Assembly: GCA_900539345.1 (NCBI GenBank)
Contig: UQBS01000006.1
Span: 13,904-77,903 of the forward strand
Length of the DNA stretch: 64,000 nt
Reading direction: 5' to 3'
From: an uncultured Coriobacteriaceae bacterium
Lineage (GTDB): Bacteria > Actinomycetota > Coriobacteriia > Coriobacteriales > UMGS124
Shown here: positions 1,347 to 27,214 of the stretch, one piece after another
How the letters are laid out: each line of letters begins with the position of its first letter
Numbering within the stretch: position 1 is the first letter of the stretch
Made by a program: the position numbers and the translations under genes
The notes under the pieces: generated by a model
Databases searched by the model: none
What the model was told of the DNA's origin: nothing
The model's input: only the letters and a program-made list of their open reading frames with translations

Positions 1347-2855
1347 ATGCAGCGTACACGTCAGGGGGCAACGGGTGCGGTCAAGGGAATCGACCCACGG
1401 GCGTTGATAGGGTCTGCCTGTTTGTGGGCTTGGGTGGACGCATTGTACAAAAGTGGGTTCTTCGCACCATTTCGTCCTACACCGTTGATGCCCGAGCTCG
1501 CTGTCTGGTTTACGTTCCTGCTGATAGTTCCTTTGAGCGCGCTTGTGTTGTGGCAAAAAGAACGCGTGCGCGCTCTGTGCGCCCGCAAAGGCTGCGCACT
1601 GGTGTGCGGCGCTGCGGGAAGCGCAGGCTCTGCGCTGTTTGCCGTGAGCGCCTCCACGGGCAGCTGGGTCGCGCTTGCGGTGGGTGCGGTGTTAGCGGGC
1701 GTTTTCATGGGGATGGCGATCCTCATGTGGGGCGCCGTGTACTGCAGGCAAGGCGAGCGTTCGGCGACGGTCTACGTTGCCGGTGGTTTTGCCTGCGCGC
1801 TTGTGGCTGACGTAACGTTCATGGTCATGGAGTCGGTCGCCTCGGCCCTGGCCCCCATGGCGCTGCCCATGATTTCGATGGTCCTTTTCAACCTGTTGCC
1901 GGAAGGGGAGCGTGCTTACGCTCGGACGACGGAGGGCGTCGACGTTCGTGAGCGGGGGACGGGAAGCCCCCTTGCCCGTCTTCGCCTGGGCCTGGGTGTG
2001 TCGGTGCCTACGGTGTGCTCGCTTGCGCTCATTATGTTCGGCCTGGGTTACATGCAGCACCGGATTTCGTTTGCCCCCATTCGCGCGGTTGGGCCCGACA
2101 TGGGCATGGCGCTGCAAATCACGCGCGGTGTCATCGCAGTCGTTCTGTTCGCCCTGGCCTTGGCTGCCCCCAGACGAACTCATATCGTCTACCGCGTGGG
2201 ACTTTTGGTCATCATCGCCGGTTTCTCCCTCATGCCGTTGCTTGCCCCGACTGATCACTTTTGGGTGTCTGGTGCCGTGGTGCTGAGTGGCTACACTACA
2301 TTTGACGTTCTTATATGGGTCATTGTCGCGCAAGCAGCGTATGCCGGCATGTCCGACGGACTAGGCGTCACCTGCGCGGTGCGCATGCTCGTGTCGAGCT
2401 TGTTCTGCGGGCTCGGGGGCATGGCCGGCATTTGGATTGACGGTCTTACTGCTGATGTCCCCTTCGCCTATGCCGACGCCATCTTCGTTGGTTACCTCAT
2501 GACCATTGCCGCCGTACTCGTTCTTTCCGGTCGCGATGTGTGGGATCTCTTTGACGCGCGCCCCATACCCGCCGAGAGTGTTTCAGCGCAGGCTGCTGGA
2601 GCTTGCAGCCCCGAGCAGGCCCTTGACGAGCTTGCCCAGAATTGGGGCCTGACGGTTCGCGAACGCGAGGTCTTCGGCTTTCTCGCCATGGGACGCACTC
2701 AACCCTGGGTGGCCGAGCGTCTCTCCATCTCGGAGTCCACGGTGAACTCCCATGTGCGCCATATTTACGGAAAAGCTGGTGTCAACAGTCGTCAGGAGCT
2801 TCTTGACCTGGTGTTTCGTGCGCAATCACCTGAAGTTATCGATAGGGCCGAGTAG
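1347..2855 (+). CDS. LuxR-family transcriptional regulator with large N-terminal polytopic membrane domain
   Basis: 502 aa. About 10 hydrophobic segments, then a C-terminal LuxR HTH: REREVFGFLAMGRTQPWVAERLSISESTVNSHVRHIYGKAGVNSRQELLDLV. SD GAGGAAGGGA lies upstream of the ATG. Confidence 0.85.
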   Translation: MQRTRQGATGAVKGIDPRALIGSACLWAWVDALYKSGFFAPFRPTPLMPELAVWFTFLLIVPLSALVLWQKERVRALCARKGCALVCGAAGSAGSALFAVSASTGSWVALAVGAVLAGVFMGMAILMWGAVYCRQGERSATVYVAGGFACALVADVTFMVMESVASALAPMALPMISMVLFNLLPEGERAYARTTEGVDVRERGTGSPLARLRLGLGVSVPTVCSLALIMFGLGYMQHRISFAPIRAVGPDMGMALQITRGVIAVVLFALALAAPRRTHIVYRVGLLVIIAGFSLMPLLAPTDHFWVSGAVVLSGYTTFDVLIWVIVAQAAYAGMSDGLGVTCAVRMLVSSLFCGLGGMAGIWIDGLTADVPFAYADAIFVGYLMTIAAVLVLSGRDVWDLFDARPIPAESVSAQAAGACSPEQALDELAQNWGLTVREREVFGFLAMGRTQPWVAERLSISESTVNSHVRHIYGKAGVNSRQELLDLVFRAQSPEVIDRAE

Positions 2856-3015
2856 CTCGACTGCATCGTAGGATTTGCATCGCATAGCGTCTTTCAAGCG
2901 TTTCGAGGTGCATGCCGTTTTCCCAAACTGATGATCAGCACATGCCGACGAGGGCATGGAGCACATCAGTCATGAGGGCCCGCTGCGCTGGGCCCCAGGC
3001 AGAAGGGGATACGGT

Positions 3016-4683
3016 ATGTCCACTATCACGAGAAGGTCCTTTGTAAGTGCGGCCGCCACGGGTGCTGCCCTGAGCGCTGTCGCGGCTGCCCCTGCGGTCG
3101 CGCTGGCCGACGAGGCCGCCATGCCTGCCGAGGGCGTCCTGCACACCTGGGAGGTCGCGCCCGACCCCATCACCGACATCGCCGAGACCTACGAGTATGA
3201 CGTCGTCGTTGTCGGCGGTGGCATGGCCGGCATGGGTGCCGCTGAGGCGGCCGCCCGCAACGGTGCAAGCGTCGTCGTCGTGGAGCGCAGCGAGTGCGGG
3301 CGCTTCTGCGGACTCGATATGTGCGCCATCGGCTCCAAGGTCCTCAAGGAGAACGGTCTCGAGATTGATCCTGAGAAGGCTGCCCGCCTTATGTATCAGG
3401 CCAGCCAACAGACGGCAAACTACAACCTCATCCGCACCTGGGCCACGCAGACCGCCGGTGTTCTCGACTACATCACCGAGCTGTGCGCTGCCAACGGCGT
3501 GACCGTTGAGCCTTCCACCGGTGGCACCTCCAAGGCGGGCTGGGACAAGATGCCCGAGCGCTACATCGTGTTCCAGGACGCCGTGCGTTACTCCAGTGAC
3601 GAGTGGGGTGTGTTTGACCGTCCGGACGGCAAGGAGCCGCATCAGAACCTGGGCGATGTCCTTATCAAGTCGGCCACCGACAACGGCTGCGAGTACTACT
3701 TCAACACCCATGCCGAGCAGCTCGTGGGCAGCGCGGCGGACGGCGTGACGGGCGTCATCGCCACTGACGCCGACGGCAAGCACATTCAGTTTAACGCCAA
3801 GAAGGGTGTCGTGCTGGCAACCGGCGACATCTCCGGCAACCAGGAGATGGTTGATTGCTGGGCACCCATTAAGAACTATGCCGACGAGGACGCCTACGTG
3901 CCCCAGGGTGCCAACTCCGGAGATGCCATCCTCATGACCAAGTGGATCGGCGGCGGTATCTCCAAGAGCCCGGCTGCCCCCATGATTCACCAGTTCACGA
4001 TTCAGACTCGCGGCTATCAGTGCACGCCCTTCTTCCTTTCTATGCTCGCGGTGAATTCCGACGGCAACCGTTTTATGAACGAGATGCCCTTCGAGCCCTA
4101 TATCACCGATGCCCGCATGAACTCCAAGGGCAATGTTGCCTGGTCCATCCTCGACTCCAATTACGCCGAGTACGTGACCAAGCAGTTCCCCGAGGGCTAC
4201 GAGTCCATGCTTGAGAACATCCCCGGCGAGCTTGAGCAACGCGTGGCTGACGGTGAGGTTTTCAAGGCCGACACCCTCGAGGAGCTTGCAGAGATGATCG
4301 GTGTTTCTGCCGGCAACCTCACTGCCGCCGTTGAGGGATACAACGGCATGGCCGACAAGGGGGAGGACACGCAGTTCGGCGTTGTTGCCGACTGGCTCTC
4401 GCCTGTTCGCGAGGCCCCGTTCTACGCCATCCCGATCTTTGCCTCCAACCTGGCTGTTGCCTATGGCGTCCACGTCAATGATGATTCCCAGGTCTGCACT
4501 GATGACGACCAGCCCATCGCCGGCCTCTTTGCCGCGGGTAACTGCCAGGGCGACTTCTTCGGCTTCAACTACCCCGTGCATTGCCCGGGCTGCTCCACGG
4601 GCCGCTCGCTCGTGTTTGGCCAGCTTATCGGTGAGGCCCTCGCCAAGGACGAGACCATCACCGAGCTCATTGCTTCGCGCTAA
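3016..4683 (+). CDS. Tat-exported FAD-dependent oxidoreductase (fumarate reductase/succinate dehydrogenase flavoprotein-like, FAD_binding_2 type)
   Basis: Twin-arginine leader MSTITRRSFVSAAATGAALSAVAAAPAVALA. Dinucleotide fold DVVVVGGGMAGMGAAEAAARNGASVVVVE. C-terminal GLFAAGNCQGDFFG. Start moved from 2956 to the ATG at 3016, which has an AGGGGA SD. Confidence 0.85.
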   Translation: MSTITRRSFVSAAATGAALSAVAAAPAVALADEAAMPAEGVLHTWEVAPDPITDIAETYEYDVVVVGGGMAGMGAAEAAARNGASVVVVERSECGRFCGLDMCAIGSKVLKENGLEIDPEKAARLMYQASQQTANYNLIRTWATQTAGVLDYITELCAANGVTVEPSTGGTSKAGWDKMPERYIVFQDAVRYSSDEWGVFDRPDGKEPHQNLGDVLIKSATDNGCEYYFNTHAEQLVGSAADGVTGVIATDADGKHIQFNAKKGVVLATGDISGNQEMVDCWAPIKNYADEDAYVPQGANSGDAILMTKWIGGGISKSPAAPMIHQFTIQTRGYQCTPFFLSMLAVNSDGNRFMNEMPFEPYITDARMNSKGNVAWSILDSNYAEYVTKQFPEGYESMLENIPGELEQRVADGEVFKADTLEELAEMIGVSAGNLTAAVEGYNGMADKGEDTQFGVVADWLSPVREAPFYAIPIFASNLAVAYGVHVNDDSQVCTDDDQPIAGLFAAGNCQGDFFGFNYPVHCPGCSTGRSLVFGQLIGEALAKDETITELIASR

Positions 4684-4786
4684 GTAAGCTTGTGCGCCGG
4701 GGCGGGTGTCATTTCCCCCTGATGCCCGCCCCGCCCGGCGCCTTGCCCCCCCTTTGAACATATATACGAGAAGAAGGAGAACCAAG

Positions 4787-6610
4787 ATGAACACGATCTC
4801 CCGCCGTTCCATGATCTGTGGTGCCGCCGGCATGGCCGCCCTGGCAGCCGCTGCACCCACCGCTGCGCTCGCCGACGTCGACCACAACCTCGAGGTCACC
4901 GACGGCAGCCCCATCGTGGGCGCCGTCGACCCCTCCGGCATCGAGTGGGATTACGAAGCCGACATCGTCATCGTCGGCGCGGGCGGCGCGGGTCTTCCTG
5001 CCGGCGTGCGAGCCCTTGACGAGGGCGTCTCGGTCCTTTTCGTTGACGCCAACTACGACTGCGGTGGCCGTTGCGCCCTGTCCGGCGGCAACCTGCACTC
5101 CGGCTGCGGCACGAAGATCCAGGAGAAGTACGGCATCGAGGACTCTGCTGACAAGTATTACGAGGACCACACGACTCCCGAGTGCATCAACTCCATCTAC
5201 GGCGACCGCAACGTGGTGCGCTCCGTGGCCGATTACATGGCCGAGGCCTACGAGTACATCCTGGACAAGGGCGTGCTCGTGAAGGACGTCGAGCCCATGC
5301 ACCTGCCCGACTACACCGAGGGCGGCGACCAGCCTGAGACCGTGGGCCGCTGGACCTACGCCGACCAGACCACCGAGGACTGGGTTTCGTATGCCGACTA
5401 CCTGTCTCCCTCTCAGGACGGCGCCTACCAGGATCGTTGCGGTATTGCCATCACGCGTCCGCTCGAGCGTGTCGCCCGCCAAGCCGGCGCTCAGTTCCTG
5501 CTGAACTACCACATGGACAAGATTGTGCGCGAAGGCGTGCTCGAGGGCCGCGTGCTGGGCATCCAGGCCCACTACTCGCCCACCATTCTCCCTGGTGAGG
5601 ACGGCCCGCTTGCTCCTCTCAGTCCCTTCTCCGACGGCAACATCGACGAGACCAAGGAGACGGTGAACGTCCGCGCCAACAAGGCTGTCATCATCGCCAC
5701 GGGCGGCTCCACGGGCAACGTCTACTTCCGCACCATGATTGACCCGCGTCGCGGTGTCGAGTACGACTGCACCTCGGGCGACCCGTTCTGCCCCAAGGAC
5801 GCCTCGGGAGAAATCGCGGCCATGGCCATCGGCGCCTGCTTGGGCGACATTGCCAATCAGGTCATTGGCGACTCCTTCCTCAGCAAGGCGGCCATGATCG
5901 GCACGCAGTACACCGACTCCTTCGCCACGGTGCAGCCCACCTCGCCTCTCTTCAAGCTTTCCCGTGCCACGGGCCTGCGCGTCTATGACTGGTCGAACCT
6001 GTTGCAGGTGAACATGCTCGGCGAGCGTTTTGCCAACGAGGCCGACTCCTCCACCGACTGGAACGGCGCTGCCCTCGCCAGCGTCTTGACCGTTGACCCC
6101 TCTGACGGCGAGCTGCACCGCTATGGCGGCCCCCTCTGGACCATCTTCGACTCCAAGGCTGTCGAGCGCGAGGGGTGGGTTATCGACGACACGACCGTTG
6201 ACCGCGAGGACGGCCGTTTCTTTGAGGCCGACACCCTTGAGGAGCTTGCCGAGAAGGTTGTGAACAAGTACTACGAGCAGATCAAGATGGACCCCGAGAC
6301 CCTCGTGGCCACCGTCAAGCGCTACAACGAGCTGGTGGACAAGGGTGCTGACGAAGACTTTGGCAAGGAGGGCATGACCGACAAGATCGAGGTCGGTCCC
6401 TTCTACGCCGCTTGGTCCACGCCTGGCTTCCACGATTGCACCACGGGTCTGCGTGTGAACCGCAAGATGCAGGTCATGGACCTGTTCGGCCAGGTCATCC
6501 CCGGTCTGTACTGCGGTGGCGAGTCTTCGGGCGGCATGCGCATCCACGGTCTGGGTCGCGTCATTACGACCGGCTATATCGCGGGCCTGTACGCCGCAAC
6601 TGAGGAGTAA
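4787..6610 (+). CDS. Tat-exported FAD-dependent oxidoreductase, paralogous type
   Basis: Leader MNTISRRSMICGAAGMAALAAAAPTAALA. DIVIVGAGGAGLPAGVRALDEGVSVLFVD and C-terminal GLYCGGESSGGMRIHGLGR. SD AAGAAGGAGA lies before the ATG at 4787. Confidence 0.85.
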   Translation: MNTISRRSMICGAAGMAALAAAAPTAALADVDHNLEVTDGSPIVGAVDPSGIEWDYEADIVIVGAGGAGLPAGVRALDEGVSVLFVDANYDCGGRCALSGGNLHSGCGTKIQEKYGIEDSADKYYEDHTTPECINSIYGDRNVVRSVADYMAEAYEYILDKGVLVKDVEPMHLPDYTEGGDQPETVGRWTYADQTTEDWVSYADYLSPSQDGAYQDRCGIAITRPLERVARQAGAQFLLNYHMDKIVREGVLEGRVLGIQAHYSPTILPGEDGPLAPLSPFSDGNIDETKETVNVRANKAVIIATGGSTGNVYFRTMIDPRRGVEYDCTSGDPFCPKDASGEIAAMAIGACLGDIANQVIGDSFLSKAAMIGTQYTDSFATVQPTSPLFKLSRATGLRVYDWSNLLQVNMLGERFANEADSSTDWNGAALASVLTVDPSDGELHRYGGPLWTIFDSKAVEREGWVIDDTTVDREDGRFFEADTLEELAEKVVNKYYEQIKMDPETLVATVKRYNELVDKGADEDFGKEGMTDKIEVGPFYAAWSTPGFHDCTTGLRVNRKMQVMDLFGQVIPGLYCGGESSGGMRIHGLGRVITTGYIAGLYAATEE

Positions 6611-9952: not shown

Positions 9953-9988
9953 TTTGTAAAGCAGGCTTCCTCTATAAGCTCTACCAAG

Positions 9989-10030
9989 AACCGTCGTCCG
10001 TGTCTCAAGGGGCATGGGCGGCGGTTTTTT
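9989..10030 (+). terminator. intrinsic terminator after the ABC importer operon
   Basis: AACCGTCGTC pairs with GGCGGCGGTT (two G-U pairs), followed by T6 at 10025-10030. Confidence 0.6.
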
Positions 10031-10191
10031 GCACTCTTAGAGAGAAATGCCAGTTCAGAGCCTACACAACAATGCATTAAAGCGTCGTAGAGCTTCATCT
10101 GGAGCCGCCAAGGGGCAAAAATCTGGAAACAGATGCGATGAATGTGCAGGCGCCGATGGGGTCGGTGCAAGACAGGCAAAGAGGAGCGACG

Positions 10192-11346
10192 ATGGACGAT
10201 AAGACGATGTGCACGGCGATTGACGACGAGGCTGCCGAGCTCGACGCAGCCGACGCGCGTGTCGAGCTCGCCCCTGCGGAAGACGCAACGGTCGCCCCCG
10301 AGGTCGCCGAGACTGCTGAGACCCCCGAGGAAGTGGCCGCCCGCGAAGCTGCCGAACTTGCCGAGAAGCGCGAGCGCGAGGCCCGCGAGGCCGCGGAGCG
10401 TGCGGCTGCCGACGAGGCTGCCCGCGAGGAGCGTGCCCAGGCTGCTGTCGAGAAGCTCTCGAAGGGCGCCGGCTGGGCCGCGCAAGCGGGCGTCTACTAC
10501 GACGCGTCCCATGGTGCGGTAAAGGCAACGAGCGTGTCCTCGGCAAAGCAGGCAGGCCGTCCCGCCGACGACGAAGACGCTGCTACCGACGAGCTGACCG
10601 AAGACGAGCTTGTCGCCGACCTCACCGACGTTGCGCGCGAGGCCGGCTCCCTCGACGACATCCAGGCCAGCGAGGCTGACGCCGGCTACATCGACCCTGT
10701 CGTCTTCGGCCGCATGGTCGCCAAGGTCACCGAGGCCGTGACGCGCAACCCTTTGCAGCGAGAGCTGTTCTACAAGGTCCTCTCCTTCTGCCAGGAGTCC
10801 AAGCCCCTGCGCGAGATCGAGCAGATGGTCATGGCGCTGCCGGGTTTCGAGCGCACCTCGGCCAACGCCTACCATTTCATCGCCGTCATGGAAAACGCTG
10901 GCGGTCTGGAGCGTTTCGAGCTTGACGACGAAGGCGATGTCGTGGATGACGCCCGCAAGGCCGGGCTTACCGAGGACGAGATCGACGACCTTGTGGCCGA
11001 GTACGCGTTCATGACCACGCCGGCCGGGCAGGCCGTGGTGGAACAGCACACGCCCCGCGCGCGCATCATCGAGCTTTTGGGCCTCGTGCCCGAGCGCCGC
11101 GACACCTACATCGAGCTCATGGAGTTCCTGGCCGAGGAGCCTCGTACCTACAACGAGGTCACGCAGCTGCTCGACGGCCGCGACGTGCTCTGGCACCTGG
11201 ACTCCAAGGGCAATCCTGAGCGTATGCAGCCCAGCGTCTTCTTGGACAAGCTGCATGACGCCGCCGCCATCGAGTGGCACCAAGGTTGGCAACTTAGCGA
11301 GGAGGGTCGCACCTACCTCGATGAGTTGAAGAGGGTCCAAAACTAG
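10192..11346 (+). CDS. hypothetical cytoplasmic protein: acidic Ala/Glu-rich N-terminal half plus two tandem winged-helix-like modules
   Basis: ATG at 10192 with SD GAGGAG 5 nt upstream. No signal peptide or TM segment. The stop lies 47 nt before the molybdoenzyme start. No family recognised by eye. Confidence 0.6.
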   Translation: MDDKTMCTAIDDEAAELDAADARVELAPAEDATVAPEVAETAETPEEVAAREAAELAEKREREAREAAERAAADEAAREERAQAAVEKLSKGAGWAAQAGVYYDASHGAVKATSVSSAKQAGRPADDEDAATDELTEDELVADLTDVAREAGSLDDIQASEADAGYIDPVVFGRMVAKVTEAVTRNPLQRELFYKVLSFCQESKPLREIEQMVMALPGFERTSANAYHFIAVMENAGGLERFELDDEGDVVDDARKAGLTEDEIDDLVAEYAFMTTPAGQAVVEQHTPRARIIELLGLVPERRDTYIELMEFLAEEPRTYNEVTQLLDGRDVLWHLDSKGNPERMQPSVFLDKLHDAAAIEWHQGWQLSEEGRTYLDELKRVQN

Positions 11347-11393: not shown

Positions 11394-14267
11394 ATGGCAG
11401 CAAACACCAACGTCACACGCCGCAGCTTTGTCAAGGCAGCAGCGCTTGCCGGCGCGGCGGTGGCCATCGGCACCCAGATGAGTGGTTCTCTCGTCGAGGC
11501 GCCTGCGGCATACGCTGACGAGGCTGACGACGTCAAGAAGGTCTACACCTCTTGTCACGGCTGCATCCAGATGTGCCCGGCCGTCGCCACCATCGAGAAC
11601 GGCGTGGTCACCAAGCTCGAGGGCGACGACCGCGCCCCCGTGTCTAAGGGCTCTCTGTGCATCAAGGGCCTCAACCAGCTGCACACCATGTACAGCCCGC
11701 GTCGTATCCTGCACCCGCTGAAGCGCGTTGGCGAGCGCGGCACGACCGACTTCGAGGTCATCTCCTGGGACGAGGCTATCGAGCTTGCGGCCACCCAGAT
11801 CAAGGATGCCATCGACCAGTACGGCAACTACGCCTTCTTCTCCTCCGTCGGCGGCGGCGGTTCCTACTCGTTCATGGAGGCCATGACGCTTCCCATGGCG
11901 TTCGGCTCCCCCACCGTCTTTGAGCCTGGCTGCGCCCAGTGCTACCTGCCCCGTTGGTCCCTGTCGAAGCTCTTCTACGGCGGCGACGACCAGTCCATCG
12001 CAGACAACGCCGTCCAGGAGATTTTCCGCGACGAGGAGAACAACAAGACTGAGCTCGTCGTGATCTGGGGCGCCCAGCCCTCCGTCTCCGAGACCGCTGA
12101 GTCCGGCCGCGGCATGGCTGAGCTGCGCGCTCGCGGTGTCAAGACGATCGTCGTTGACCCGAACTTCTCGCCCGACGCCGCCAAGGCCGACGTGTGGCTC
12201 CCTGTTCGTCCCGAGACCGACACGGGCGTGCTTCTGTCCTGGTACCGCTACATCTTCGAGAACAAGCTCTACGACGAAGAGTTCACCAAGTACTGGACGA
12301 ACCTGCCCTTCCTGATCGACCCCGACACCAAGCTTCCCGTCAAGGCCCAGGAGCTCTTCCCCGATTTCCAGCAAACTACGCCCGAGAACACCCCGGCGTA
12401 CGTGTGCTACGACCTCAAGACCGGCGCCGTTGCTCCCTTCGAGTACAGCGCTCCTGCTGACTCCGCCGTTGACCCCGAGATCTTCTGGGAGGGCGAGTAC
12501 GAGGGCAAGACCTACAAGACCGCCGGCCAGATCTACAAGGATCAGGCTGAGCCCTGGACCCTCGAGCACACTGAGGAAGTCACCTGGGTTCCCGCCGACC
12601 TCAACGAGAAGGCCATTAAGATGTACGCCGAGAACTGGGGCGGCATCGCCAACGGCGTCGCGGCTGACATGAGCGAGTCTGCCTCCCAGGTGCCTCTGGG
12701 CTGCATGGGCCTGGATGCCATCATGGGCCGCATCAACAAGCCCGGCGTCACCATGACGCAGAAGGGCGGCGGCTACTTCGCCACCATGACCGACACCGGT
12801 GAGACCGTCAACACTCGCCCGGTCACCTACAACAACGGCTTTAGCGGCATGTTCTCCGACATGTACGGCGTGGGTGCCGTCATCGGCATGTCCGACGCTG
12901 AGAACGAGGAGCGCATCAAGGCTCTGGGCGAGGCTATGCCTGACTCCCAGAAGACCCTCAACAAGCTGCTCCAGGACCGTCTGGGCATGAAGTACCACAA
13001 GGGTCTCTACGCTTGGTGCCACTCCCACATCCCTACGGTGCGCGAGGCCATCGCCACCGGCGAGCCCTTCAAGCCGCGCGTGTGGTTCGACATGTCGGGC
13101 AACAAGCTCGCGATGCTCGGTAACGCCAAGAGCTGGTACGACGTCTTCCCCGAGGTGGACTTCATCATCGGCCAGTACCCGATGCTGACCTCCTTCCACA
13201 TTGAGGCCGCCGACCTGGTCTTCCCGCTGCGCGAGTGGCTCGAGGAGCCCATGGTCAACATGACCCAGCTCGACACCCAGTGGCTGCAGAACGAGTGCAC
13301 CCACATCGGCGAGACCGTCTCCCACTCCATTCCTGCCGCACAGGTCATCAAGAAGTGCCAGGAGCTGTGGGGCGGCTCCATCCCCGGTGGCCTCGAGCTC
13401 GCTCCCGGCGTCTCTGCCTACCTGGGCAACGCCACCGAGCAGGAGGTCAAGGACTCCACCGCGCAGACTCTGGGCGCTGCTGACTGGGATACGCTCCAGT
13501 CCGACATCGACGCCTACGTGCCTTGCGTGACGCCCGACTACTTTAACTACCTGCAGCATGAGCAGCTCTGCGACGACGGCCTGCCTTCGGGCTTCGCCAC
13601 CGAGTCGCGCAAGGTCGAGGTCTACTGCCAGATGCTTCTGCGTATGGCCCGCAACGGCTACCCGTTCTGCTACCCCGAGCCGCAGGAGGCCTGCGACGAC
13701 TACAGCCCGATCTGCGCGTTCATCGAGCCTGCCGAGTCGCCCATCAACGACGAGGCCAACGGTGAGGGTGGCCAGTACCCGTTCATCCTGACCTCCGGCC
13801 GCGTGCCGTACTTCCACCATGGCACTATGCGTCACGCTGCGTTCTCCCGTGAGCTCTATCCTGCGCCTCACGTGCGCATCAACCCGCGCTCCGCTGCCGA
13901 CCTCGACATCGCCGACGGCGACTGGCTCAAGATCACGAGCCGTCGCGGTGAGATCGCCGGCATCGCCGAGCTCACCGAGGGCGTGGCCCCCGGCGTTGTC
14001 TGGATGGAGCGCTACTGGAACCCCGAGTGCTTCGACGAGTCCATCCCCGCAGAGCAGCGCTCCGCTGGCTGGCGCGAGATGAACGTCAACGTGCTGACCA
14101 AGAACGATGCCCCGTTCAACGAGGTGTACGGCTCTTACACCAACCGCGGCTTCACCGTGCGCGTGGAGAAGGGCGACAAGCCTGCCAACGTTTGGATTGA
14201 GCCCGAGGAGTTCCAGCCCTTCATGCCCACGCTCCAGAGCGAGCCCAAGACTGAGGATGTGTTCTAA
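11394..14267 (+). CDS. Tat-exported molybdopterin (bis-MGD) oxidoreductase catalytic subunit, DMSO-reductase superfamily
   Basis: 957 aa. Leader MAANTNVTRRSFVKAAALAGAAVAIG. N-terminal 4Fe-4S motif CHGCIQMCx27C. C-terminal molybdopterin dinucleotide-binding block ILTSGRVPYFHHG...INPRSAADLDIADGDWLKITSRRGEI. Confidence 0.9.
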   Translation: MAANTNVTRRSFVKAAALAGAAVAIGTQMSGSLVEAPAAYADEADDVKKVYTSCHGCIQMCPAVATIENGVVTKLEGDDRAPVSKGSLCIKGLNQLHTMYSPRRILHPLKRVGERGTTDFEVISWDEAIELAATQIKDAIDQYGNYAFFSSVGGGGSYSFMEAMTLPMAFGSPTVFEPGCAQCYLPRWSLSKLFYGGDDQSIADNAVQEIFRDEENNKTELVVIWGAQPSVSETAESGRGMAELRARGVKTIVVDPNFSPDAAKADVWLPVRPETDTGVLLSWYRYIFENKLYDEEFTKYWTNLPFLIDPDTKLPVKAQELFPDFQQTTPENTPAYVCYDLKTGAVAPFEYSAPADSAVDPEIFWEGEYEGKTYKTAGQIYKDQAEPWTLEHTEEVTWVPADLNEKAIKMYAENWGGIANGVAADMSESASQVPLGCMGLDAIMGRINKPGVTMTQKGGGYFATMTDTGETVNTRPVTYNNGFSGMFSDMYGVGAVIGMSDAENEERIKALGEAMPDSQKTLNKLLQDRLGMKYHKGLYAWCHSHIPTVREAIATGEPFKPRVWFDMSGNKLAMLGNAKSWYDVFPEVDFIIGQYPMLTSFHIEAADLVFPLREWLEEPMVNMTQLDTQWLQNECTHIGETVSHSIPAAQVIKKCQELWGGSIPGGLELAPGVSAYLGNATEQEVKDSTAQTLGAADWDTLQSDIDAYVPCVTPDYFNYLQHEQLCDDGLPSGFATESRKVEVYCQMLLRMARNGYPFCYPEPQEACDDYSPICAFIEPAESPINDEANGEGGQYPFILTSGRVPYFHHGTMRHAAFSRELYPAPHVRINPRSAADLDIADGDWLKITSRRGEIAGIAELTEGVAPGVVWMERYWNPECFDESIPAEQRSAGWREMNVNVLTKNDAPFNEVYGSYTNRGFTVRVEKGDKPANVWIEPEEFQPFMPTLQSEPKTEDVF

Positions 14268-14869
14268 TGAGAAACTGCCTTGTTATCGATCTGGACCGCT
14301 GCTCCGGCTGCGACTCCTGCATCGCCGCTTGCAAGCATGAGAACGGCATCGGCCTGGGCGTGTACCGCAACACCGTGGACCGTATGGGCCCCATCGGCGA
14401 GTGGCCGCGTCCGCAGCAGTACTGGCTGCCCCGCCAGTGCCAGCAGTGCGATAACGCCCCCTGCCTTGAGGTGTGCCCCACCGGCGCCACCTACCGCGAG
14501 GACGAGTACGGCCTGATTGTCATCAACCAGGAGCAGTGCATCGGCTGCCAGCAGTGCATGACTGCCTGCCCCTTTGACGCTCGCTGGTTCGACGCCGCCA
14601 ACTCCGTCGTCGAGAAGTGCGATGGCTGCATTGACAGGCTCAAGAAGGGCGAGAAGCCCGCATGCGTGCACAACTGCTGCTGCGGTGCCCGTCTCTTCGG
14701 TGACCTCGACGATCCCGAGTCCGATGCCTCGAAGGCACTGGCTGCGGCCGACCCCGCGTCGCTGCACCAGTTCAACGACGAGGTCGGCGCCTCGCCCCGT
14801 ACGGTTTACATCCTGTCGGAGAAGGTATGCCCCTGGCAGGACGAGAAGACCGCCTATCGCGCTCGCTAG
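14267..14869 (+). CDS. 4Fe-4S ferredoxin-type electron-transfer subunit (DmsB/NrfC-like)
   Basis: Four Cys clusters: CSGCDSCIAAC, CQQCDNAPCLEVCP, CIGCQQCMTACP, CDGCIDRLKKGEKPACVHNCC. TAATG overlap with the catalytic subunit stop. Confidence 0.9.
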   Translation: MRNCLVIDLDRCSGCDSCIAACKHENGIGLGVYRNTVDRMGPIGEWPRPQQYWLPRQCQQCDNAPCLEVCPTGATYREDEYGLIVINQEQCIGCQQCMTACPFDARWFDAANSVVEKCDGCIDRLKKGEKPACVHNCCCGARLFGDLDDPESDASKALAAADPASLHQFNDEVGASPRTVYILSEKVCPWQDEKTAYRAR

Positions 14870-15039
14870 TGTGATGCGTCGTTCCCTTTGAGCGGGATGC
14901 GTTGAATGATTGATGGGGGCGAGGTTGCCTGTGTGGCGCCTCGCCCCCATGACACAAAGGGACGGGTGCAATGTGTTGTTCCCGGACCTTGCAAGATGGA
15001 GCTGCCGCTTGTGCGGCGTTGTCACGGAGAGGAACCACA

Positions 15040-15846
15040 ATGAGCGAGAACACGATGGCCGAGACGCTAGATACCCAGGCCGAGGCCACCTCCGCCGACG
15101 CCGCCGCACAGGCTGAGCAGGCTGCGACTGCCGTTCCCGAGGAGGTCGCCGCTGCCCTTGAGGGCCGCGCCGCTTTCTATGAGACGCTCGCAGGCCTTTT
15201 TTGGATGCCGCTTACGGCCGAGCAGGTAGAGGCCATGGCCGGCCAGGATTTCTCCGCCTATGCCGAGCTCAACGAAGACTTCGCCGACGGCGTGAACGAC
15301 ATCACACGCTACCTGCGCAAGCGCAACACCGGTACGCGCGACGAGATGGCCGTGGACTTCACGGGCACCTTCACGGGCATCAAGACCTACGAGGGCAAGA
15401 CGGCCGTGCCGTACAAGTCGGTCTTTACGAGCGAAGATGGCCTTATGTACCAGGAGGGTTTCCGCGAGGTGTACCACGCCTTCAAGGCCGAGGCCATCAA
15501 GAAGCGCGCCGGGCTCGACTACCCTGACGACCACATCTCGTTTCTCTGCCAGTTCATGGCCATCATGAGCCGCCGTACGCTCGAGGCCCTGCAGGCCGGC
15601 GACTACGACAAGGCTGCCCACGACGTGAAGGCCTCTGCCGACTTCCTCGACAACAACATCCTCTCCTGGTACGACCAGCTCATGGAGCGTTCGCTGTTGC
15701 TCATCAAGACCCGCTTCTACAAGGGCGTCATGAAGCTTGCGCGTGGGTTCTTTACGCTCGACCGCGAGACGCTGGCCGACCTGGCCGATGAGGTTGCCGA
15801 GCTTGCCGAGGCGGCCCAGAAGACCGAGGGGACCCAGGCCGAGTAA
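15040..15846 (+). CDS. TorD/DmsD-family redox-enzyme maturation chaperone (probable)
   Basis: AAFYETLAGLFWMPLTAEQVEAM and DDHISFLCQFMAIM resemble the TorD family. Start set to the ATG at 15040 after SD GGAGAGG. Position downstream of the Mo enzyme fits. Confidence 0.72.
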   Translation: MSENTMAETLDTQAEATSADAAAQAEQAATAVPEEVAAALEGRAAFYETLAGLFWMPLTAEQVEAMAGQDFSAYAELNEDFADGVNDITRYLRKRNTGTRDEMAVDFTGTFTGIKTYEGKTAVPYKSVFTSEDGLMYQEGFREVYHAFKAEAIKKRAGLDYPDDHISFLCQFMAIMSRRTLEALQAGDYDKAAHDVKASADFLDNNILSWYDQLMERSLLLIKTRFYKGVMKLARGFFTLDRETLADLADEVAELAEAAQKTEGTQAE

Positions 15847-15959
15847 CCAGGCGCGCCTGCTTGCCCGAGGTGCCCGAACATAGACTTTAGCCGCCAGGTT
15901 CACCCTCTCCTCTTTTTGCGTACAATTATGTGCGTACATTCAAGGGGAGAGGGTTTCGC

Positions 15960-17540
15960 ATGGAGCAGACGGACGCTTCTGGGGTGAAGCGGAGCTTAAC
16001 CGAAGAGTTGGCGACGCGTTGGTCGTCGCTGCCGTTCATGGCGTTTGGCGTGTGGACCGCTTGGTCGTCGCTTACCTATTCTGGGTCGCTGTGGCTTTCT
16101 GACAACGAGGTCAACGGGTTCTACCTGTCGTTGCTGTTCGTCATCTCCACCATGACATTTGCCGTGGTGTTCCTTGGGGCGTCGTTCTTTGCCCGCCGCC
16201 ACGCTGACAAGGGCGATGTCTCGGATCGCGTCGTCATGGGATTCGGCCTCTTGGCGGCCTTGGGCGCTTTTCTTATCATTTTGGCCGGCCCGTACTGGTT
16301 GGGCGTTTCCCGTCGGGCAACCTCTGTGTTTGTGGTCGGAGCCATCATGACGGGAGCTGGCACGGCCGGCATCGGTCTGCGTTGTGCGACGCTCTATGGT
16401 GGCCTACCGCCGCGCAGGGCGCTCATCACAGCGGCATTGTCGCAGCTTGTGGCCTCATTCATCTATTTTGTCGTACTGGCGACCCCCGCATGGGCGCCCA
16501 TTGCCCATGGCCCCTCACTCACCCATATCCTGGCGTTCACGCTGCTGCCGGTGGTCGCCGCCTGGCTTTCATGCATCAAGCCGTCGCACGAGTCGCTCTT
16601 TGAGGAGAACGTCCGTCAGTATCCGGCAAACAGCGGCGCGCTTCCCGCAGCGTTCTGGCGTTTCTCGGCCTTCGCGTTTGCGCTTGCCCTCATCACCACG
16701 TTCATCCGCTCGTCCATGGTGACGGTGAGCGCGCTTGCCAACACGGTCGAGGGCAACAACGTGCTGCAGCTCCTACGCATCGCGATGGTGCTCGTCGTGA
16801 TCGCCTGGACGCTGCGTTCCGACGCGCAGGGGTTCGACTTGGGGCGCGTTTGCTCGCTCGCCACGGTGCTTGCCGCCGTGGTTACCGCCTGCTCGGCGGC
16901 TTTGGGGGGAACCACCAGCGCACTCAGCGTGCTCGTGTACTTTGCCAGCAGCATCTTCGAGTTCTTCATGTGGTGCCTGCTCGCCTTCATCGTGTATCAG
17001 AAGCACATCTCGCCGCTTGCCGTGTTCGGTTTCGGCCGAGGACTCTTTATGCTTGGCTGTGCCCTGGGCTGGGCGCTTGGCATTGTCGTGATGCCGAGCA
17101 TCGAGGCGGCATCTGCGCAGGTAGTCGTAAGCATCGTGCTTGCTGGCACCATCATCATCTTGTGGCTCGCCCTGTTCTCGGGCAAGGACTACGAGCGTCT
17201 CTTCTCCACGGTGGGCGAAGACGAGCTGTCGCTGGAGGACCTCTTTGAGATTGACCAGCGCCTTGATGAAGGCACCGAGGCGGGACAGCCCAAGTCGGAG
17301 CGCAAGGGCAAGTTCGGCCAGGCGGTCGAGGCCATCGCCGCTCGCAACGCCCTTTCCGCACGTGAGGCCGAGGTACTGCGCTGCCTCGCCATGGGATACG
17401 GCTCAGAGCGCATCGCCCAAACCATGGGCGTCAAGGTGAACACCGTGCGCACCCATACCCACAACGTCTACGTCAAGCTCGACGTCCACTCCCGCGAGGA
17501 GCTCATGCGCCTCGTCGACGACGAAGTTGCAGGGCAGTAG
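15960..17540 (+). CDS. LuxR-family transcriptional regulator with N-terminal polytopic membrane domain
   Basis: Many hydrophobic segments, then SAREAEVLRCLAMGYGSERIAQTMGVKVNTVRTHTHNVYVKLDVHSREELMRLV. ATG at 15960 after SD GGGGAGAGGG. Confidence 0.85.
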   Translation: MEQTDASGVKRSLTEELATRWSSLPFMAFGVWTAWSSLTYSGSLWLSDNEVNGFYLSLLFVISTMTFAVVFLGASFFARRHADKGDVSDRVVMGFGLLAALGAFLIILAGPYWLGVSRRATSVFVVGAIMTGAGTAGIGLRCATLYGGLPPRRALITAALSQLVASFIYFVVLATPAWAPIAHGPSLTHILAFTLLPVVAAWLSCIKPSHESLFEENVRQYPANSGALPAAFWRFSAFAFALALITTFIRSSMVTVSALANTVEGNNVLQLLRIAMVLVVIAWTLRSDAQGFDLGRVCSLATVLAAVVTACSAALGGTTSALSVLVYFASSIFEFFMWCLLAFIVYQKHISPLAVFGFGRGLFMLGCALGWALGIVVMPSIEAASAQVVVSIVLAGTIIILWLALFSGKDYERLFSTVGEDELSLEDLFEIDQRLDEGTEAGQPKSERKGKFGQAVEAIAARNALSAREAEVLRCLAMGYGSERIAQTMGVKVNTVRTHTHNVYVKLDVHSREELMRLVDDEVAGQ

Positions 17541-17787: not shown

Positions 17788-19092
17788 ATGGGTGTGTACC
17801 AGTCAGATTATTGGCAGTCCTGCGGGTGGGGAATGAACCGGCGAGAGACGCAAAGTGGGACATACCATCCGTTCTTGCCCGACAAGCTGGCAGGGCTCGA
17901 TATCATGCTGACACCCGAGGCGGTCTCGGCCGTGACGCAGGCGCAGTCTGCCGTGTTGCTGCTCAACCAAGAGGCGCGCTTTCTGACCAATACAGAACCT
18001 CTGGCGCGCCTGCTGTTGCGTTCTGAGGCGTTGGCCTCCTCTCGCATTGAGGGTTTGCAAATGAATGCCGGCAGGCTGCTCGAATTTGAGGCGCTTGACG
18101 AGCTGGGCGTGTCGCATCGACTCGATGGTGTGGAGGCCGCGGTCATGGCAAATATCGCCGCCATGAGCGACGCGGTGGATAGCATCGGGGCCGGCGACTC
18201 GATTACGGTGAATGACATTCGTGCTGTAAATGCGACCTTGCTTCAAGGGTCGCACCTTGAGGATGAGGGCGGAGTGCTGCGCACGATCCAAAACTGGATC
18301 GGCGGCAACAATGTCAACCCGGTTGGCGCTGCCTACGTACCACCCCGGCCCGAACATGTCCCGGAGCTGATGGAAGACCTCGCCCAATTCTGCAACACGT
18401 CGCCCTTGCCGGCGATTGCCGTGGCGGCGATAGCGCACGCTCAGCTCGAAACGATTCATCCGTTTGCGGATGGCAATGGGCGGACGGGTCGTGCCCTTGT
18501 GCACATGTTGTTGCACCGTGCGGGCCTGACTCCGAACAGCGTCCCTCCCATCTCGCTTGTGCTGGCAACGGACAAGGCACGCTACATCAACAATCTCCCA
18601 GCGTATCGATGCGATGACGGGCGATATGAAGGGGCAGATGAAAAGGCCGCTGCTCTGCAAGGGTGTATCAGCGATTGGGTGGAGTACTTTGCCAACGCGG
18701 TGCTGCTTGCTTGCGGGCGCGCGCAGGAGTTTGAGCACCGTATTGCCGATATTCAGGAAGAATGGCGCGGCCGCGGCACGATTCGCAAGAATTCGTCTGC
18801 CGATGTGCTCATCGAGGTCCTGCCAGGCAACCCTGTTGTCAGCGTCGTTTCGGCCGCTCGCCTGACAAGTAAAAGCGTCCAGGCTGCGCGCCTGGCGCTC
18901 AAGCAGCTGGAGAGCATGGGCATCCTGGTGCAGAATGCCAAGAACCGCAAGAGCAACATCTATGTCGCGCAAGAAATTTTGGATGCATTCACGGCGTACG
19001 AGCGAGCTCTGGTGGTGCCTGGCGGCGATACGTCTTCAGAGAAACCCATGCGACCCGTGCCTCTGCGCGTCCCGCGAGACCGCCGGCCATAA
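17788..19092 (+). CDS. Fic-family protein (AMPylase-type), class II with N-terminal inhibitory helix and C-terminal winged-helix-like tail
   Basis: Fic motif HPFADGNGRTGRAL. Inhibitory motif SSRIEG matches (S/T)xxxE(G/N). The start is uncertain (17788 or the ATG at 17833). GC3 is visibly lower than in neighbouring genes. Confidence 0.88.
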   Translation: MGVYQSDYWQSCGWGMNRRETQSGTYHPFLPDKLAGLDIMLTPEAVSAVTQAQSAVLLLNQEARFLTNTEPLARLLLRSEALASSRIEGLQMNAGRLLEFEALDELGVSHRLDGVEAAVMANIAAMSDAVDSIGAGDSITVNDIRAVNATLLQGSHLEDEGGVLRTIQNWIGGNNVNPVGAAYVPPRPEHVPELMEDLAQFCNTSPLPAIAVAAIAHAQLETIHPFADGNGRTGRALVHMLLHRAGLTPNSVPPISLVLATDKARYINNLPAYRCDDGRYEGADEKAAALQGCISDWVEYFANAVLLACGRAQEFEHRIADIQEEWRGRGTIRKNSSADVLIEVLPGNPVVSVVSAARLTSKSVQAARLALKQLESMGILVQNAKNRKSNIYVAQEILDAFTAYERALVVPGGDTSSEKPMRPVPLRVPRDRRP

Positions 19093-19172: not shown

Positions 19173-19601
19173 TTAGGCCTCGACGGCGACGAGCACGTCG
19201 GTGCTCTTCACGAAGGCGACGGCAGGCTTGCCGACCTCGAGGCCAAGCTCCTCGATGGCAGCGTTGGTGATGGAGCCGGAGACGGTCAGGCCGTACTCGG
19301 TGGTGATGGTCACATGGCCGTTGACGGCGCCCTTCTGGATTTTGGTGACCTCGCCGCAGAACTGGTTGCGGGCAGAGATCTGCAGGTGCTGGCCGGCCTC
19401 GGCGAACATGACGTTGGTGGCCTTGACCACGGCGATGGCGGGCTTGCCGGCCTCGAGGCCCAGATCCTCGACGGCCTCGCAGGTGATGTCGGCCTTGATG
19501 TTCTTGCCGGGGGCAACCTCGATGGCGACGACGGCGTTGACGGCGCCCTTCTCGACGGAGACGACGGTGCCGGCGAACTGGTTGCGGGCGGAAATCTTCA
19601 T
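19173..19601 (-). CDS. mop: molybdenum-pterin/molybdate-binding protein, di-Mop (two TOBE domains)
   Basis: 142 aa with two repeats: MKISARNQFAGTVVSVEKGAVNAVV... and LQISARNQFCGEVTKIQKGAVNGHV... The ATG at 19601 is preceded by GAAAGGAAG. The longer ORF to 19811 was trimmed. Confidence 0.88.
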   Translation of the reverse strand: MKISARNQFAGTVVSVEKGAVNAVVAIEVAPGKNIKADITCEAVEDLGLEAGKPAIAVVKATNVMFAEAGQHLQISARNQFCGEVTKIQKGAVNGHVTITTEYGLTVSGSITNAAIEELGLEVGKPAVAFVKSTDVLVAVEA

Positions 19602-19900
19602 GATGCGCTTCCTTTCGATGGTTGCGGGCGGCTGCCACTGCAAGTGCCGCGCCTGGCTGACGAGGGGAACTATAAGCCATGGGGTTTGGCGCTCCGGTCT
19701 TCGCGCCAACATTTGAGTTCTGTTGTACCAACGCGTGCCAATCAGCAATCGAACGTGCGTAGAAAAGACTCGATTTGTCCGATTGCCAATCTGGCAATGC
19801 CATTCTGTCATTCCATATTGAGGCCTGTGCCAGCGACTTTATATAATGGAGTTAGTATCGAGCCCTGTGTGGGCGCACGTTCGGCAGAAGGGAAGACATC

Positions 19901-25235: not shown

Positions 25236-25376
25236 GGCAGTGTTCCCCCTTGCACACAACAGGCCCCGACCACCCTCGTGTTGTTTGAGAGGCGGCCGGG
25301 GCTTTCGATGAGCGAATGCCGGTGGGATTATAGGCGATGAGTCCGTGCCCGATATTGCTCGAAGGACCTTTTGGGC

Positions 25377-27014: not shown

Positions 27015-27214
27015 GTGCAAAATCCCCTTTCGAATGGGTTGGTTGGCGGTGGTTGTCCGTACACCGCTTGACGCCATCCGACTCTAGGGGTTGCCTTGTA
27101 CGACTGGGAATAAACTATGTCAGGGAATTTGGTTGAAGGGTATAAACCAGACCATAATCTTCCCAGGTCAAGATGGGTTTTGTATAAATGCAGCTGCTTG
27201 CTCACGGCCTTGAC

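Follow-up and report, generated by a model that had tools for sequence, protein, structure and literature searches.

The locus analysed here raises the question of what an acidic protein without a meaningful match in Pfam or NCBIfam is doing directly in front of an exported molybdoenzyme. The gene lies in a 64,000-nucleotide stretch of DNA from an uncultured Coriobacteriaceae bacterium (the window), in which a sequence-only reading had described an uncharacterised protein leading a molybdoenzyme operon and had offered a dedicated regulator, scaffold or assembly factor as possible roles for it.

The gene itself is real and under selection. Its reading frame runs on the forward strand from the ATG at 10192 to a TAG at 11344–11346 and encodes 384 aa, and the strong Shine-Dalgarno sequence of its own that had been claimed for it is present 5 nt before the ATG. 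GGGGAG or GAGGAG is kept at this position in relatives, and an alternative upstream ATG (10138) is out of frame in close relatives through a 1-nt indel. The public protein collection contains the exact 384-aa sequence, so gene callers picked the same start. Selection is purifying: dN/dS, which would lie near 1 for a frame lacking conservation, is 0.01–0.10 in the core and 0.16–0.27 in the N-terminus. The product has a net charge of −48 and a pI of 4.3, and residues 1–163 consist of 28% Ala, 16% Glu and 12% Asp. Since hydropathy over 19 residues reaches 0.74 at most, the protein has no TM segment or signal peptide, as had been proposed; it contains only two Cys and no cofactor motif. Scans with Pfam and NCBIfam of this protein, of 20 family members and of the E. 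lenta protein DadhE, discussed below, returned nothing meaningful.

The upstream transporter operon closes with a strong intrinsic terminator (Table 1), whose predicted fold has an MFE of −34.6 kcal/mol (z −4.4; none of 200 shuffled sequences folds equally well) and which relatives retain, with substitutions in the stem. This places the target gene first in a new transcription unit. Its position at the head of the molybdoenzyme operon, 47 nt before the enzyme gene, is thus what the DNA predicts, with a terminator ahead of the gene and none that would separate the two genes in the gap between its stop codon and the molybdoenzyme ATG (11394). Between terminator and gene, the block at 10060–10098 is a candidate promoter or regulator-binding site on the basis of its conservation: the intergenic DNA flanking it varies among the same loci, unlike the block itself. 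A sigma-70 consensus scan of the region upstream of the target gene found no promoter, and no inverted repeat turned up there in a repeat search.

Table 1. Positions in the window of the target gene, its parts, its operon neighbours and the upstream DNA elements.
Feature	Position	Strand	Basis or description
Intrinsic terminator of the upstream FecCD/ABC/binding-protein transporter operon	9987..10032	+	19-bp hairpin followed by a U-run
Conserved non-coding block, GCCTACACAACAATGCATTAAAGCG..GTAGAGCTTCAT	10060..10098	+	Near-invariant in the window and in related loci L001 and L004–L008
Shine-Dalgarno sequence AGAGGAG	10180..10186	+	5 nt ahead of the ATG; seen in the sequence itself
Target gene	10192..11346	+	DadhE-family protein, 384 aa: acidic N-terminal extension and tandem winged-helix core
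Residues 1–43, acidic disordered tail	10192..10320	+	pLDDT <50; poorly conserved, varies between relatives
Residues 45–91, single long Ala/Glu/Arg-rich helix	10324..10464	+	AF2 pLDDT 59–85
Residues 93–104, short conserved motif AG[W/F]..x.G.YYD	10468..10503	+	Within a low-confidence acidic linker (residues 92–163)
Winged-helix module 1, residues 187–275	10750..11016	+	AF2 model, pLDDT 97.2; hhalign duplication test; alignment conservation
Winged-helix module 2 and C-terminal helix, residues 300–383	11089..11340	+	AF2 model; hhalign; conservation
bis-MGD catalytic subunit, DMSO-reductase family, 957 aa	11394..14267	+	Pfam Molybdop_Fe4S4, Molybdopterin, Molydop_binding
4Fe-4S electron-transfer subunit, four-cluster type, 200 aa	14267..14869	+	Pfam Fer4_11, 6e-26
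TorD/NarJ-family chaperone (DadhF-like)	14971..15846	+	PF02613, 1.6e-22; phmmer against DadhF, 6.6e-28
Multi-pass membrane LuxR-type regulator	15930..17540	+	GerE domain, residues 474–528

The catalytic subunit that follows the target gene carries a Tat signal, TRRSFVKAAA (TIGR01409), has PsrA/thiosulfate reductase and formate dehydrogenases as its closest relatives in the PDB, and is the probable client of the target protein. The FeS subunit, whose start overlaps the stop codon of the catalytic gene, shows NCBIfam similarity to NrfC, TtrB and DmsB. For the TorD-like gene, the real start probably lies downstream of 14971, because its relatives are called at 268 aa (L001–L003). Membrane LuxR-type regulators like the one that ends this series activate catechol dehydroxylase operons in E. 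lenta (PMC9734109). No membrane-anchor gene was found in the window. The observation that the target does not belong to the canonical set of a DMSO-reductase-family operon holds, and it is a non-canonical component embedded in the operon.

The core of the target protein, residues 164–384, is predicted with confidence (AF2 model, pLDDT 97.2) to fold as two winged-helix modules, both with the topology H-b-H-H-hairpin. The wing insertion of module 1 holds the best-conserved acidic motif of the family, GL(T/S)EDE(I/V)DDLV, and module 2 has the motif QPSVF[VL]DKL..A..I.W..GW.L[ST].EG; the core position W203 is invariant in 119 sequences. An internal winged-helix-like duplication had been suspected from the letters alone, and the two modules are true duplicates: at the profile level, hhalign aligns them over 79 columns with a probability of 98.3% and E 2.2e-14, against 7% for the reversed control. 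The comparison of the single sequences is weak and not convincing (BLASTP E 0.096, 18% identity).

Ahead of the core, the N-terminus had been read as disordered or coiled, and the full-length AF2 model contains both states, with pLDDT <50 at residues 1–43 and 92–154 and a long helix at 45–91. The 47 residues of this helix include 16 A, 13 E, 7 R and 3 K, and it is conserved within the subfamily that has a long N-terminus. In the short motif that follows, A93, G94 and Y102 are invariant, and G100, Y103 and D104 at least 90% conserved, in 21 sequences of 45–91% identity. DNGF.D..TD[IV]D, another candidate for a general motif of the N-terminal tail, was dropped, being present in only about 4 of 118 members.

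The core of about 200 aa defines a family without a Pfam entry, comprising at least 435 clusters at 50% identity, of which nearly all come from Coriobacteriia. We located its genomic loci by a genome scan with a 20-sequence alignment. Synteny with molybdoenzymes across Coriobacteriia, which had been suggested as a check, is very strong: of 80 loci, 72 have the family gene immediately ahead of a related catalytic gene in the same orientation (median gap about 40 nt), and another 6 have it immediately ahead of a TorD-like chaperone gene; the association with a catalytic, an FeS and a TorD-like gene holds in 76 of the 80. A Tat RR motif is found on 68 of the 73 downstream catalytic genes tested. 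Several genomes contain multiple paralogues, each adjoining its own enzyme.

A function for this family is suggested by one distant relative. From the dadh accessory locus of E. lenta, retrieved via a published deletion primer, we obtained the sequence of DadhE, which NCBI names "hypothetical protein [Eggerthella]". The target protein matches it with BLASTP E 2e-8 (24% identity over 244 aa) and phmmer 2e-8, and the family profile aligns with it by hhalign over 200 columns, the whole core (probability 98.6%, E 1.1e-15). Judged by these alignments, the target family is homologous to DadhE/Elen_0476, and the target protein is a new, divergent DadhE-family member. In our literature search the family was described only in PMC11887054, where homologues are also reported in the Hcdh and Cadh clusters. 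According to that study, a heterologous host, G. urolithinfaciens, cannot dehydroxylate dopamine without dadhD to dadhH (PMC11887054, 2025). Most of the inactive deletion strains still contained detectable Dadh protein, with the dadR and dadhD deletions as the only named exceptions; DadhE is reported as necessary for the activity of Dadh and not for its expression, its deletion having abolished activity without being named among those that cost expression. AlphaFold3 predicted that DadhE contacts the catalytic subunit, and the Cadh accessory set could not support Dadh, the accessory sets being cluster-specific (PMC11887054). The label "uncharacterised" therefore still fits the target as regards mechanism and annotation, but not as regards its homologue, for which there are published genetics. 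The loci collected here extend the association, since family members accompany a whole clade of molybdoenzymes beyond the Dadh, Hcdh and Cadh clusters.

Like the target, DadhE (Elen_0476 and its orthologue in E. lenta A2) has an N-terminal tail that is acidic and matches no Pfam domain, and its gene cluster likewise comprises a Tat-exported bis-MGD enzyme, an FeS subunit and a TorD-like chaperone. The two proteins are, however, only about 24% identical, and the N-terminal extension of the target is much longer, with its 47-residue charged helix and AG[W/F]..YYD motif. The gene for DadhE belongs to a separate operon of accessory genes (D-E-F-G-H-I) that runs divergently from dadhABC, whereas the target heads a structural operon, and the enzyme adjacent to the target belongs to a different clade from DadhA (23–33% identity), so that we rejected it as a Dadh orthologue. 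The E. lenta cluster also has DadhD (helicase-like) and DadhG/H (NapGH-like ferredoxins), of which no homologues were found within the 64-kb window. NapG/H-like genes are present at some related loci, for example L038. These companions characterise the E. lenta clusters, not the protein family as such.

On this evidence we estimate a probability of roughly 0.6 that the target is a cytoplasmic, enzyme-specific maturation or assembly factor of the DadhE family for the Tat-exported bis-MGD molybdoenzyme next to it. Because the protein is a distant relative of DadhE, which is needed for active enzyme, a helper of assembly is the most likely role, and not a DNA-binding regulator. Support comes from the homology to DadhE and its published genetics, from synteny, the arrangement of terminators, purifying selection and the acidic core, and from the Tat motifs on the neighbouring enzymes, together with the lack of a signal peptide, TM segment or cofactor motif in the target.

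The functional data that we draw on were obtained with a homologue of about 24% identity, attached to a catalytic subunit of 23–33% identity and placed in an accessory operon instead of at the head of a structural one; these distances count against maturation as the role.

If the target is a maturation factor, the following sequence of events may be envisaged. The operon would be co-transcribed with the target first, followed by the catalytic subunit, the FeS subunit, the TorD-like chaperone and the LuxR regulator. The tandem acidic winged-helix core, perhaps a pseudo-dimer that has lost its DNA-binding character, would bind the newly made apo catalytic subunit, while the TorD-like chaperone holds the Tat signal peptide and the target protein works alongside it. 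Together they could keep the apo-enzyme competent for insertion of bis-MGD and FeS clusters and for assembly with its partner before Tat export, after which the target would be released and retained in the cytoplasm. The acidic disordered tail and charged helix may be a lineage-specific appendage that provides a second contact or a solubilising role. In this scheme we infer that the target binds the catalytic subunit directly, at what stage of cofactor insertion and export it does so, and that it stays in the cytoplasm.

The role proposed here has a well-known counterpart in TorD, DmsD and NarJ (PF02613), which likewise are cytoplasmic, cofactor-less and operon-encoded, serve one Tat-exported molybdoenzyme and are needed for its activity. 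The TorD family is all-helical, whereas the target is a tandem winged helix with beta hairpins and has no sequence or fold relationship to it; no PF02613 or NCBIfam TorD-family match was found for the target protein. As a genuine TorD-family gene (14971–15846) is present in the same operon, the two proteins are not redundant, and a second chaperone must have a distinct role. We know of no redox-enzyme maturation protein with a winged-helix fold.

The published dadhE deletion data fit a maturation factor as well as a protein that forms part of the finished enzyme or activates it (PMC11887054). As a stoichiometric third subunit or allosteric activator, the target would be needed for catalysis and not for assembly; it would bind the folded catalytic/FeS complex in the cytoplasm and leave through Tat as a "hitch-hiker", the route that the FeS subunit has to take. 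The requirement of DadhE for activity and its predicted contact with the catalytic subunit agree equally well with such a subunit, as does the 1:1 encoding with the catalytic gene, often at the first position of the structural operon. There is also a precedent in DsrD, likewise a winged-helix protein whose gene accompanies that of a redox enzyme, DsrAB; it acts on this enzyme and not on DNA (PMC8794893). DsrD is, however, a single small winged-helix domain that allosterically activates a cytoplasmic enzyme (PMC8794893), whereas the probable client of the target is exported. The target showed no sequence similarity to DsrD, which was absent from the results of the PDB sequence searches and from the 50 Foldseek matches listed. 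Eggerthella-type dehydroxylases are described as consisting of catalytic, FeS and anchor subunits, with DadhE unmentioned as a subunit, and in E. lenta dadhE adjoins chaperone and electron-transfer accessory genes, not dadhABC; at six of our loci, moreover, the partner of the family gene is TorD and not the catalytic gene. Tat exports folded proteins, and a passenger whose disordered tail can reach about 170 residues would be awkward. We therefore regard a third subunit or activator as unlikely.

A winged-helix protein encoded first in its operon, downstream of a conserved non-coding block, has the typical position of an autoregulator, and the target could accordingly be imagined as a MarR/PadR-like transcription factor acting on its own operon, for example via 10060–10098. 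The Foldseek search that had been recommended for the core model supports the winged-helix class, with MarR, PadR and ArsR-type regulators as the nearest structural neighbours and winged-helix regulators of such types making up most of the PDB matches listed; the matches are weak (best E 0.048), with TM up to 0.65 as normalised to the matched protein of about 100 aa, and include no specific relative and none with the two-module arrangement, so that they indicate fold class only. PadR-family proteins match individual modules with a TM of 0.57–0.65, again normalised to the matched protein, and an rmsd of 3–4 Å over about 100 columns, but matches spanning both modules have an rmsd of 11–17 Å, and the modules are thus not arranged like a DNA-binding dimer. 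Searches of PDB sequences with the single sequence and with a 119-sequence profile found nothing, no wHTH Pfam model matched any of 20 family members at E ≤1, and no NCBIfam model matched the target. Unlike MarR, PadR and ArsR regulators, the target has its two modules fused in one chain, is strongly acidic and lacks a basic recognition helix or wing. This holds across the family: not one of the 118 cores examined is neutral or basic, all being acidic (medians: net charge −15, pI 4.7), and helix 3, the putative recognition helix, and the wings contain only 6–11% Lys/Arg, which makes DNA binding unlikely. Neither the continued expression of Dadh expected from the dadhE deletion report (PMC11887054) nor the dedicated LuxR-type regulator already present in the operon favours such a role. 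A DNA-binding regulator is highly improbable, and of the roles first suggested for the protein it is the assembly factor that is favoured by the homology to DadhE and its genetics.

Acidic tails and winged-helix modules often serve protein–protein interaction, and a membrane LuxR-type gene is present in 62 of the 80 related loci, as might suit a protein that modulates this regulator or another signalling partner by contact, as an anti- or co-activator, and so affects induction. Least probable of all, this role is at odds with a family gene that adjoins the catalytic or TorD gene and not the LuxR gene, which varies in position and strand, with the expression of Dadh in most inactive deletion strains, and with the AlphaFold3 model that puts DadhE on the catalytic subunit (PMC11887054).

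Coriobacteriia such as Eggerthella, Gordonibacter, Adlercreutzia and Slackia possess numerous paralogous molybdoenzymes, by which drugs, neurotransmitters and dietary polyphenols are transformed. The substrates of most of these enzymes are unknown, and producing most of them in foreign hosts has proved very difficult (PMC11887054). What is new here is that the "hypothetical" DadhE belongs to a large family, is usually encoded by the first gene of the operon in that family, and has a confidently predicted tandem acidic winged-helix fold. The practical yield is a genomic marker for such operons, a rule for expression constructs (include the cognate factor) and a structural model. More tentatively, and with slightly less than even confidence, we propose that DadhE-type proteins form a previously undefined class of maturation proteins, in which fused, acidic, DNA-blind winged helices with a disordered tail act as paralogue-specific matchmakers. 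If so, each would pair one of a genome's many Tat-exported molybdoenzymes with the machinery of cofactor insertion and export; the requirement for such a factor would reach beyond the catechol dehydroxylases to other, uncharacterised enzyme clades, and in most lineages the factor would be built into the structural operon as its first gene. Co-expression of the cognate factor could then be what heterologous production of these gut enzymes has lacked.

The gene at the head of the molybdoenzyme operon very probably encodes a divergent member of the DadhE family, as judged by sequence comparison. DadhE (Elen_0476) is an accessory protein of the dopamine dehydroxylase (Dadh) of Eggerthella lenta, whose cluster was dissected by the Balskus laboratory in 2025 (PMC11887054). 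That cluster contains DadhABC, the regulators DadR/S, the helicase-domain protein DadhD, DadhE (a 'hypothetical protein'), the TorD-like DadhF, the NapG/H-like ferredoxins DadhG/H, and DadhI (PMC11887054). In a Gordonibacter urolithinfaciens host, any single deletion from dadhD to dadhH led to loss of activity; most inactive strains still contained detectable Dadh protein, the only named exceptions being the dadR and dadhD deletions, and contact between DadhE and the catalytic subunit was predicted with AlphaFold3 (PMC11887054). The Hcdh and Cadh clusters carry similar accessory proteins, and Dadh is not supported by the Cadh set (PMC11887054). E. lenta contigs, fetched from gut metagenomes via a deletion primer of that study, have a gene order that agrees with its description. 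Our assignment follows from two matches of DadhE: one to the family profile across the whole core, residues 164-384 of the window protein (hhalign: probability 98.6%, E 1.1e-15, 200 columns), and one to the window protein itself (BLASTP: E 2e-8, 24% identity, 244 residues). The systems differ in that the window gene heads the structural operon, whereas DadhE lies in a separate accessory operon; moreover, no homologue of DadhD or DadhG/H was found in the window.

Sequence searches of Pfam, NCBIfam and the PDB gave no match for the family. An exhaustive HMMER search of 1.84 billion cluster representatives, with the core as query, found 435 proteins at E <=1e-3 (211 at <=1e-10), which is an underestimate, as DadhE would be too distant to be reached in this way. 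Most of the matches are 210-300 aa long and align across the full ~200-aa core, identifying the core as the unit that defines the family; the long N-terminus of the window protein is confined to some lineages. The source name, where given, is 'hypothetical protein', and there is no precomputed Pfam domain among the matches listed. Scanning one genome per species yielded 80 loci, nearly all from Coriobacteriia (Adlercreutzia, Eggerthella, Gordonibacter, Slackia, Denitrobacterium, Rubneribacter, Parvibacter and Raoultibacter); the few otherwise-named records are probably mis-binned contigs, given that they share the same operon architecture. The core is 100% identical in an 'uncultured Coriobacteriales bacterium' MAG from the Hadza gut (L004). 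Several genomes have two or three paralogues. A second member in Adlercreutzia equolifaciens, highly divergent (phmmer E 2e-9 against the core of the window protein), sits at the far end of the locus, beyond one complete operon; this suggests tandem arrays of operons, each with its own factor.

When the six-frame ORFs of all 80 loci were searched with the window proteins, a close same-strand relative of the window's catalytic subunit was found directly 3' of the family member in 72, the median distance from stop to start being about 40 nt. The RR.[FLIV] Tat motif is present in 68 of 73 downstream catalytic ORFs tested, and the commonest gene order is family member, catalytic subunit, FeS subunit, TorD-like chaperone, LuxR regulator. 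Six other loci have the family member directly upstream of the TorD-like gene (gap -4 to 52 nt). Three of them (L071, L077, L078) have the catalytic and FeS genes 5' of it in the same orientation, two (L034, L061) have these genes divergent, and one locus (L073) is truncated upstream; the rest of the loci are truncated. The synteny with molybdoenzymes on which the sequence-only reading depended is thus clearly present.

That reading also held co-transcription with the molybdoenzyme to be likely, and we predict the same: a terminator, kept in relatives, follows the FecCD/ABC/binding-protein operon that stops at 9952, the 47-nt gap before the catalytic gene folds no better than shuffles (z +0.29), and a scan found no plus-strand terminator. 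The nearly invariant non-coding block upstream, the ends of which read CTACA...TGTAG in several relatives, may serve as the promoter of the operon and/or be bound by the neighbouring membrane LuxR regulator.

The closest solved relatives of the catalytic subunit are PsrA/thiosulfate reductase and formate dehydrogenases. Its identity to DadhA, the Dadh catalytic subunit, is only 23-33%, and the label of catechol dehydroxylase is not warranted by these data. The interval between the FeS and TorD-like genes (14869-14971) is too short for an anchor gene, and NapG/H-like ferredoxin genes are absent from the window operon. At this position roughly half of the related loci leave a gap of ~0.8-1.0 kb, which in Slackia piriformis codes for a polytopic membrane protein of 273 aa (L038:12031-12852); NapG/H-like genes follow TorD there (L038:13737-15421). 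Directly after the LuxR gene of the operon comes a Fic/DOC-domain gene, a variable spot, since an AAA_14/DUF4143 gene takes its place in three closely related loci (L001-L003). A tandem TOBE-domain gene of the molybdate-binding type lies ~1.6 kb beyond the operon, and a TOBE gene is also found at the equivalent edge of these three loci. Two adjacent ORFs of ~590 aa have no Pfam match and no detectable mutual similarity (BLASTP E 3.6). The window also holds two further modules of reductase and membrane LuxR genes, as is typical of Coriobacteriia with their expanded set of respiratory reductases.

Features of the window and of the E. lenta accessory locus (L085)
Feature	Position	Strand	Details
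LuxR, first reductase module	1347-2855	+	module 1347-6610
FAD_binding_2 flavoprotein, first module	2956-4683	+
FAD_binding_2 flavoprotein, first module	4706-6610	+
Terminator	9987-10032		19-bp hairpin + U-run; MFE -34.6 kcal/mol, z -4.4
Non-coding block	10060-10098		GCCTACACAACAATGCATTAAAGCG..GTAGAGCTTCAT; nearly invariant; about 95-130 nt before target start
Shine-Dalgarno	10180-10186	+	AGAGGAG; 5 nt before ATG
Target gene	10192-11346	+	384 codons
Motif AG[W/F]..x.G.YYD	10468-10503		residues 93-104; within low-confidence acidic linker
Tat-signal bis-MGD catalytic subunit	11394-14267		957 aa
4Fe-4S subunit	14267-14869		200 aa
TorD/NarJ-family chaperone	14971-15846
Multi-pass membrane LuxR-type regulator	15930-17540
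Fic/DOC-domain protein	17788-19092	+	Fic_N + Fic
Tandem TOBE-domain protein	19173-19811	-	Mop/ModE-like
~590-aa ORF	19901-21670	+	hydrophobic N-terminus; Pro/Ala/Thr-rich linker
~590-aa ORF	21861-23651	+
LuxR, second reductase module	23760-25259	-	module 23760-27077
FAD_binding_2 flavoprotein, second module	25377-27077	-
DadhE	L085:2648-3439		264 aa; NCBI 'MULTISPECIES: hypothetical protein [Eggerthella]'
Second A. equolifaciens member	L080:15804-16610

The target ORF is intact and ends in TAG. Comparison with relatives places its correct start at 10192: in close relatives a 1-nt indel puts the alternative upstream ATG, in frame here at 10138, out of frame, and a public collection already contains the identical 384-aa product. 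Much of what had been read from the sequence is borne out, including the 47-nt gap, the gene's own Shine-Dalgarno and the Ala/Glu/Asp-rich N-terminus (28%, 16% and 12% of residues 1-163). The protein is acidic (pI 4.3, net charge -48); with a peak 19-residue hydropathy of 0.74 and a net charge of -8 in the first 30 residues it has no transmembrane segment or signal peptide, and with only two cysteines no metal-cluster motif. Against close relatives, dN/dS is 0.01-0.10 in the core and 0.16-0.27 in residues 1-163, rather than near 1. The N-terminus, described earlier as disordered or coiled, has pLDDT <50 at residues 1-43 and 92-154 in the full-length model, where residues 45-91 form a single long helix (16 Ala, 13 Glu, 7 Arg, 3 Lys). 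This conserved 47-residue helix precedes the AG[W/F]..x.G.YYD motif, which relatives of 45-91% identity have kept; both are confined to the long-N-terminus subfamily.

The AlphaFold2 model of the core, built from a 119-sequence alignment, is confident (mean pLDDT 97.2, pTM 0.86). An introductory helix leads into two modules (residues 187-275 and 300-383), each with the winged-helix pattern of helix, short strand, helix, helix and beta-hairpin, the wing of module 1 bearing an insertion. The similarity of the modules, already suspected, is marginal between single sequences (E 0.096) and holds at the profile level (hhalign: probability 98.3%, E 2.2e-14, 79 columns; reversed-profile control, 7%), by which comparison they are homologous. 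Foldseek against the PDB gave nothing significant (best E 0.048) and no solved counterpart for the two-module arrangement. The weak matches, among those listed, are mostly winged-helix regulators of the MarR, PadR and ArsR types; one module aligns to a ~100-aa PadR protein with target-normalised TM up to 0.57-0.65 and rmsd of 3-4 A, as against 11-17 A for alignments across both modules. The model thus supports the fold class.

Of the functions proposed from the sequence, that of assembly factor fares best: we give a probability of about 0.6 to the protein being a cytoplasmic, enzyme-specific biogenesis (maturation) factor. Its role would be to bind the catalytic subunit in its apo form and to work together with the TorD-like chaperone ahead of Tat export. 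Four points favour this reading: the gene pairs strictly one to one with a catalytic gene, its alternative partner is TorD, the protein lacks an export signal, and accessory sets are reported to be specific to their cluster. The chief rival, by analogy with DsrD, which acts on DsrAB (PMC8794893), is that the protein may be a hitch-hiking subunit or an activator of the finished enzyme. A regulator in the DNA-binding sense, for all the winged-helix fold, is unlikely, since the core is acidic in 118 of 118 members examined (median net charge -15, pI 4.7, none >=0), the would-be DNA-contacting helices and wings are only 6-11% Lys/Arg, the operon carries its own LuxR-type regulator, of the membrane kind that in E. 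lenta activates the expression of catechol dehydroxylases (PMC9734109), and the deletions reported to abolish Dadh expression do not include that of DadhE (PMC11887054).

Proteins of this kind are already in the literature, though unnamed in databases. What is new is the divergent window member and its position at the operon head; the extent of the family, both in members and in taxa, and its nearly obligate synteny with a single enzyme clade; the confidently modelled tandem winged-helix fold with its internal duplication; and the argument that this fold would have been repurposed away from DNA binding.
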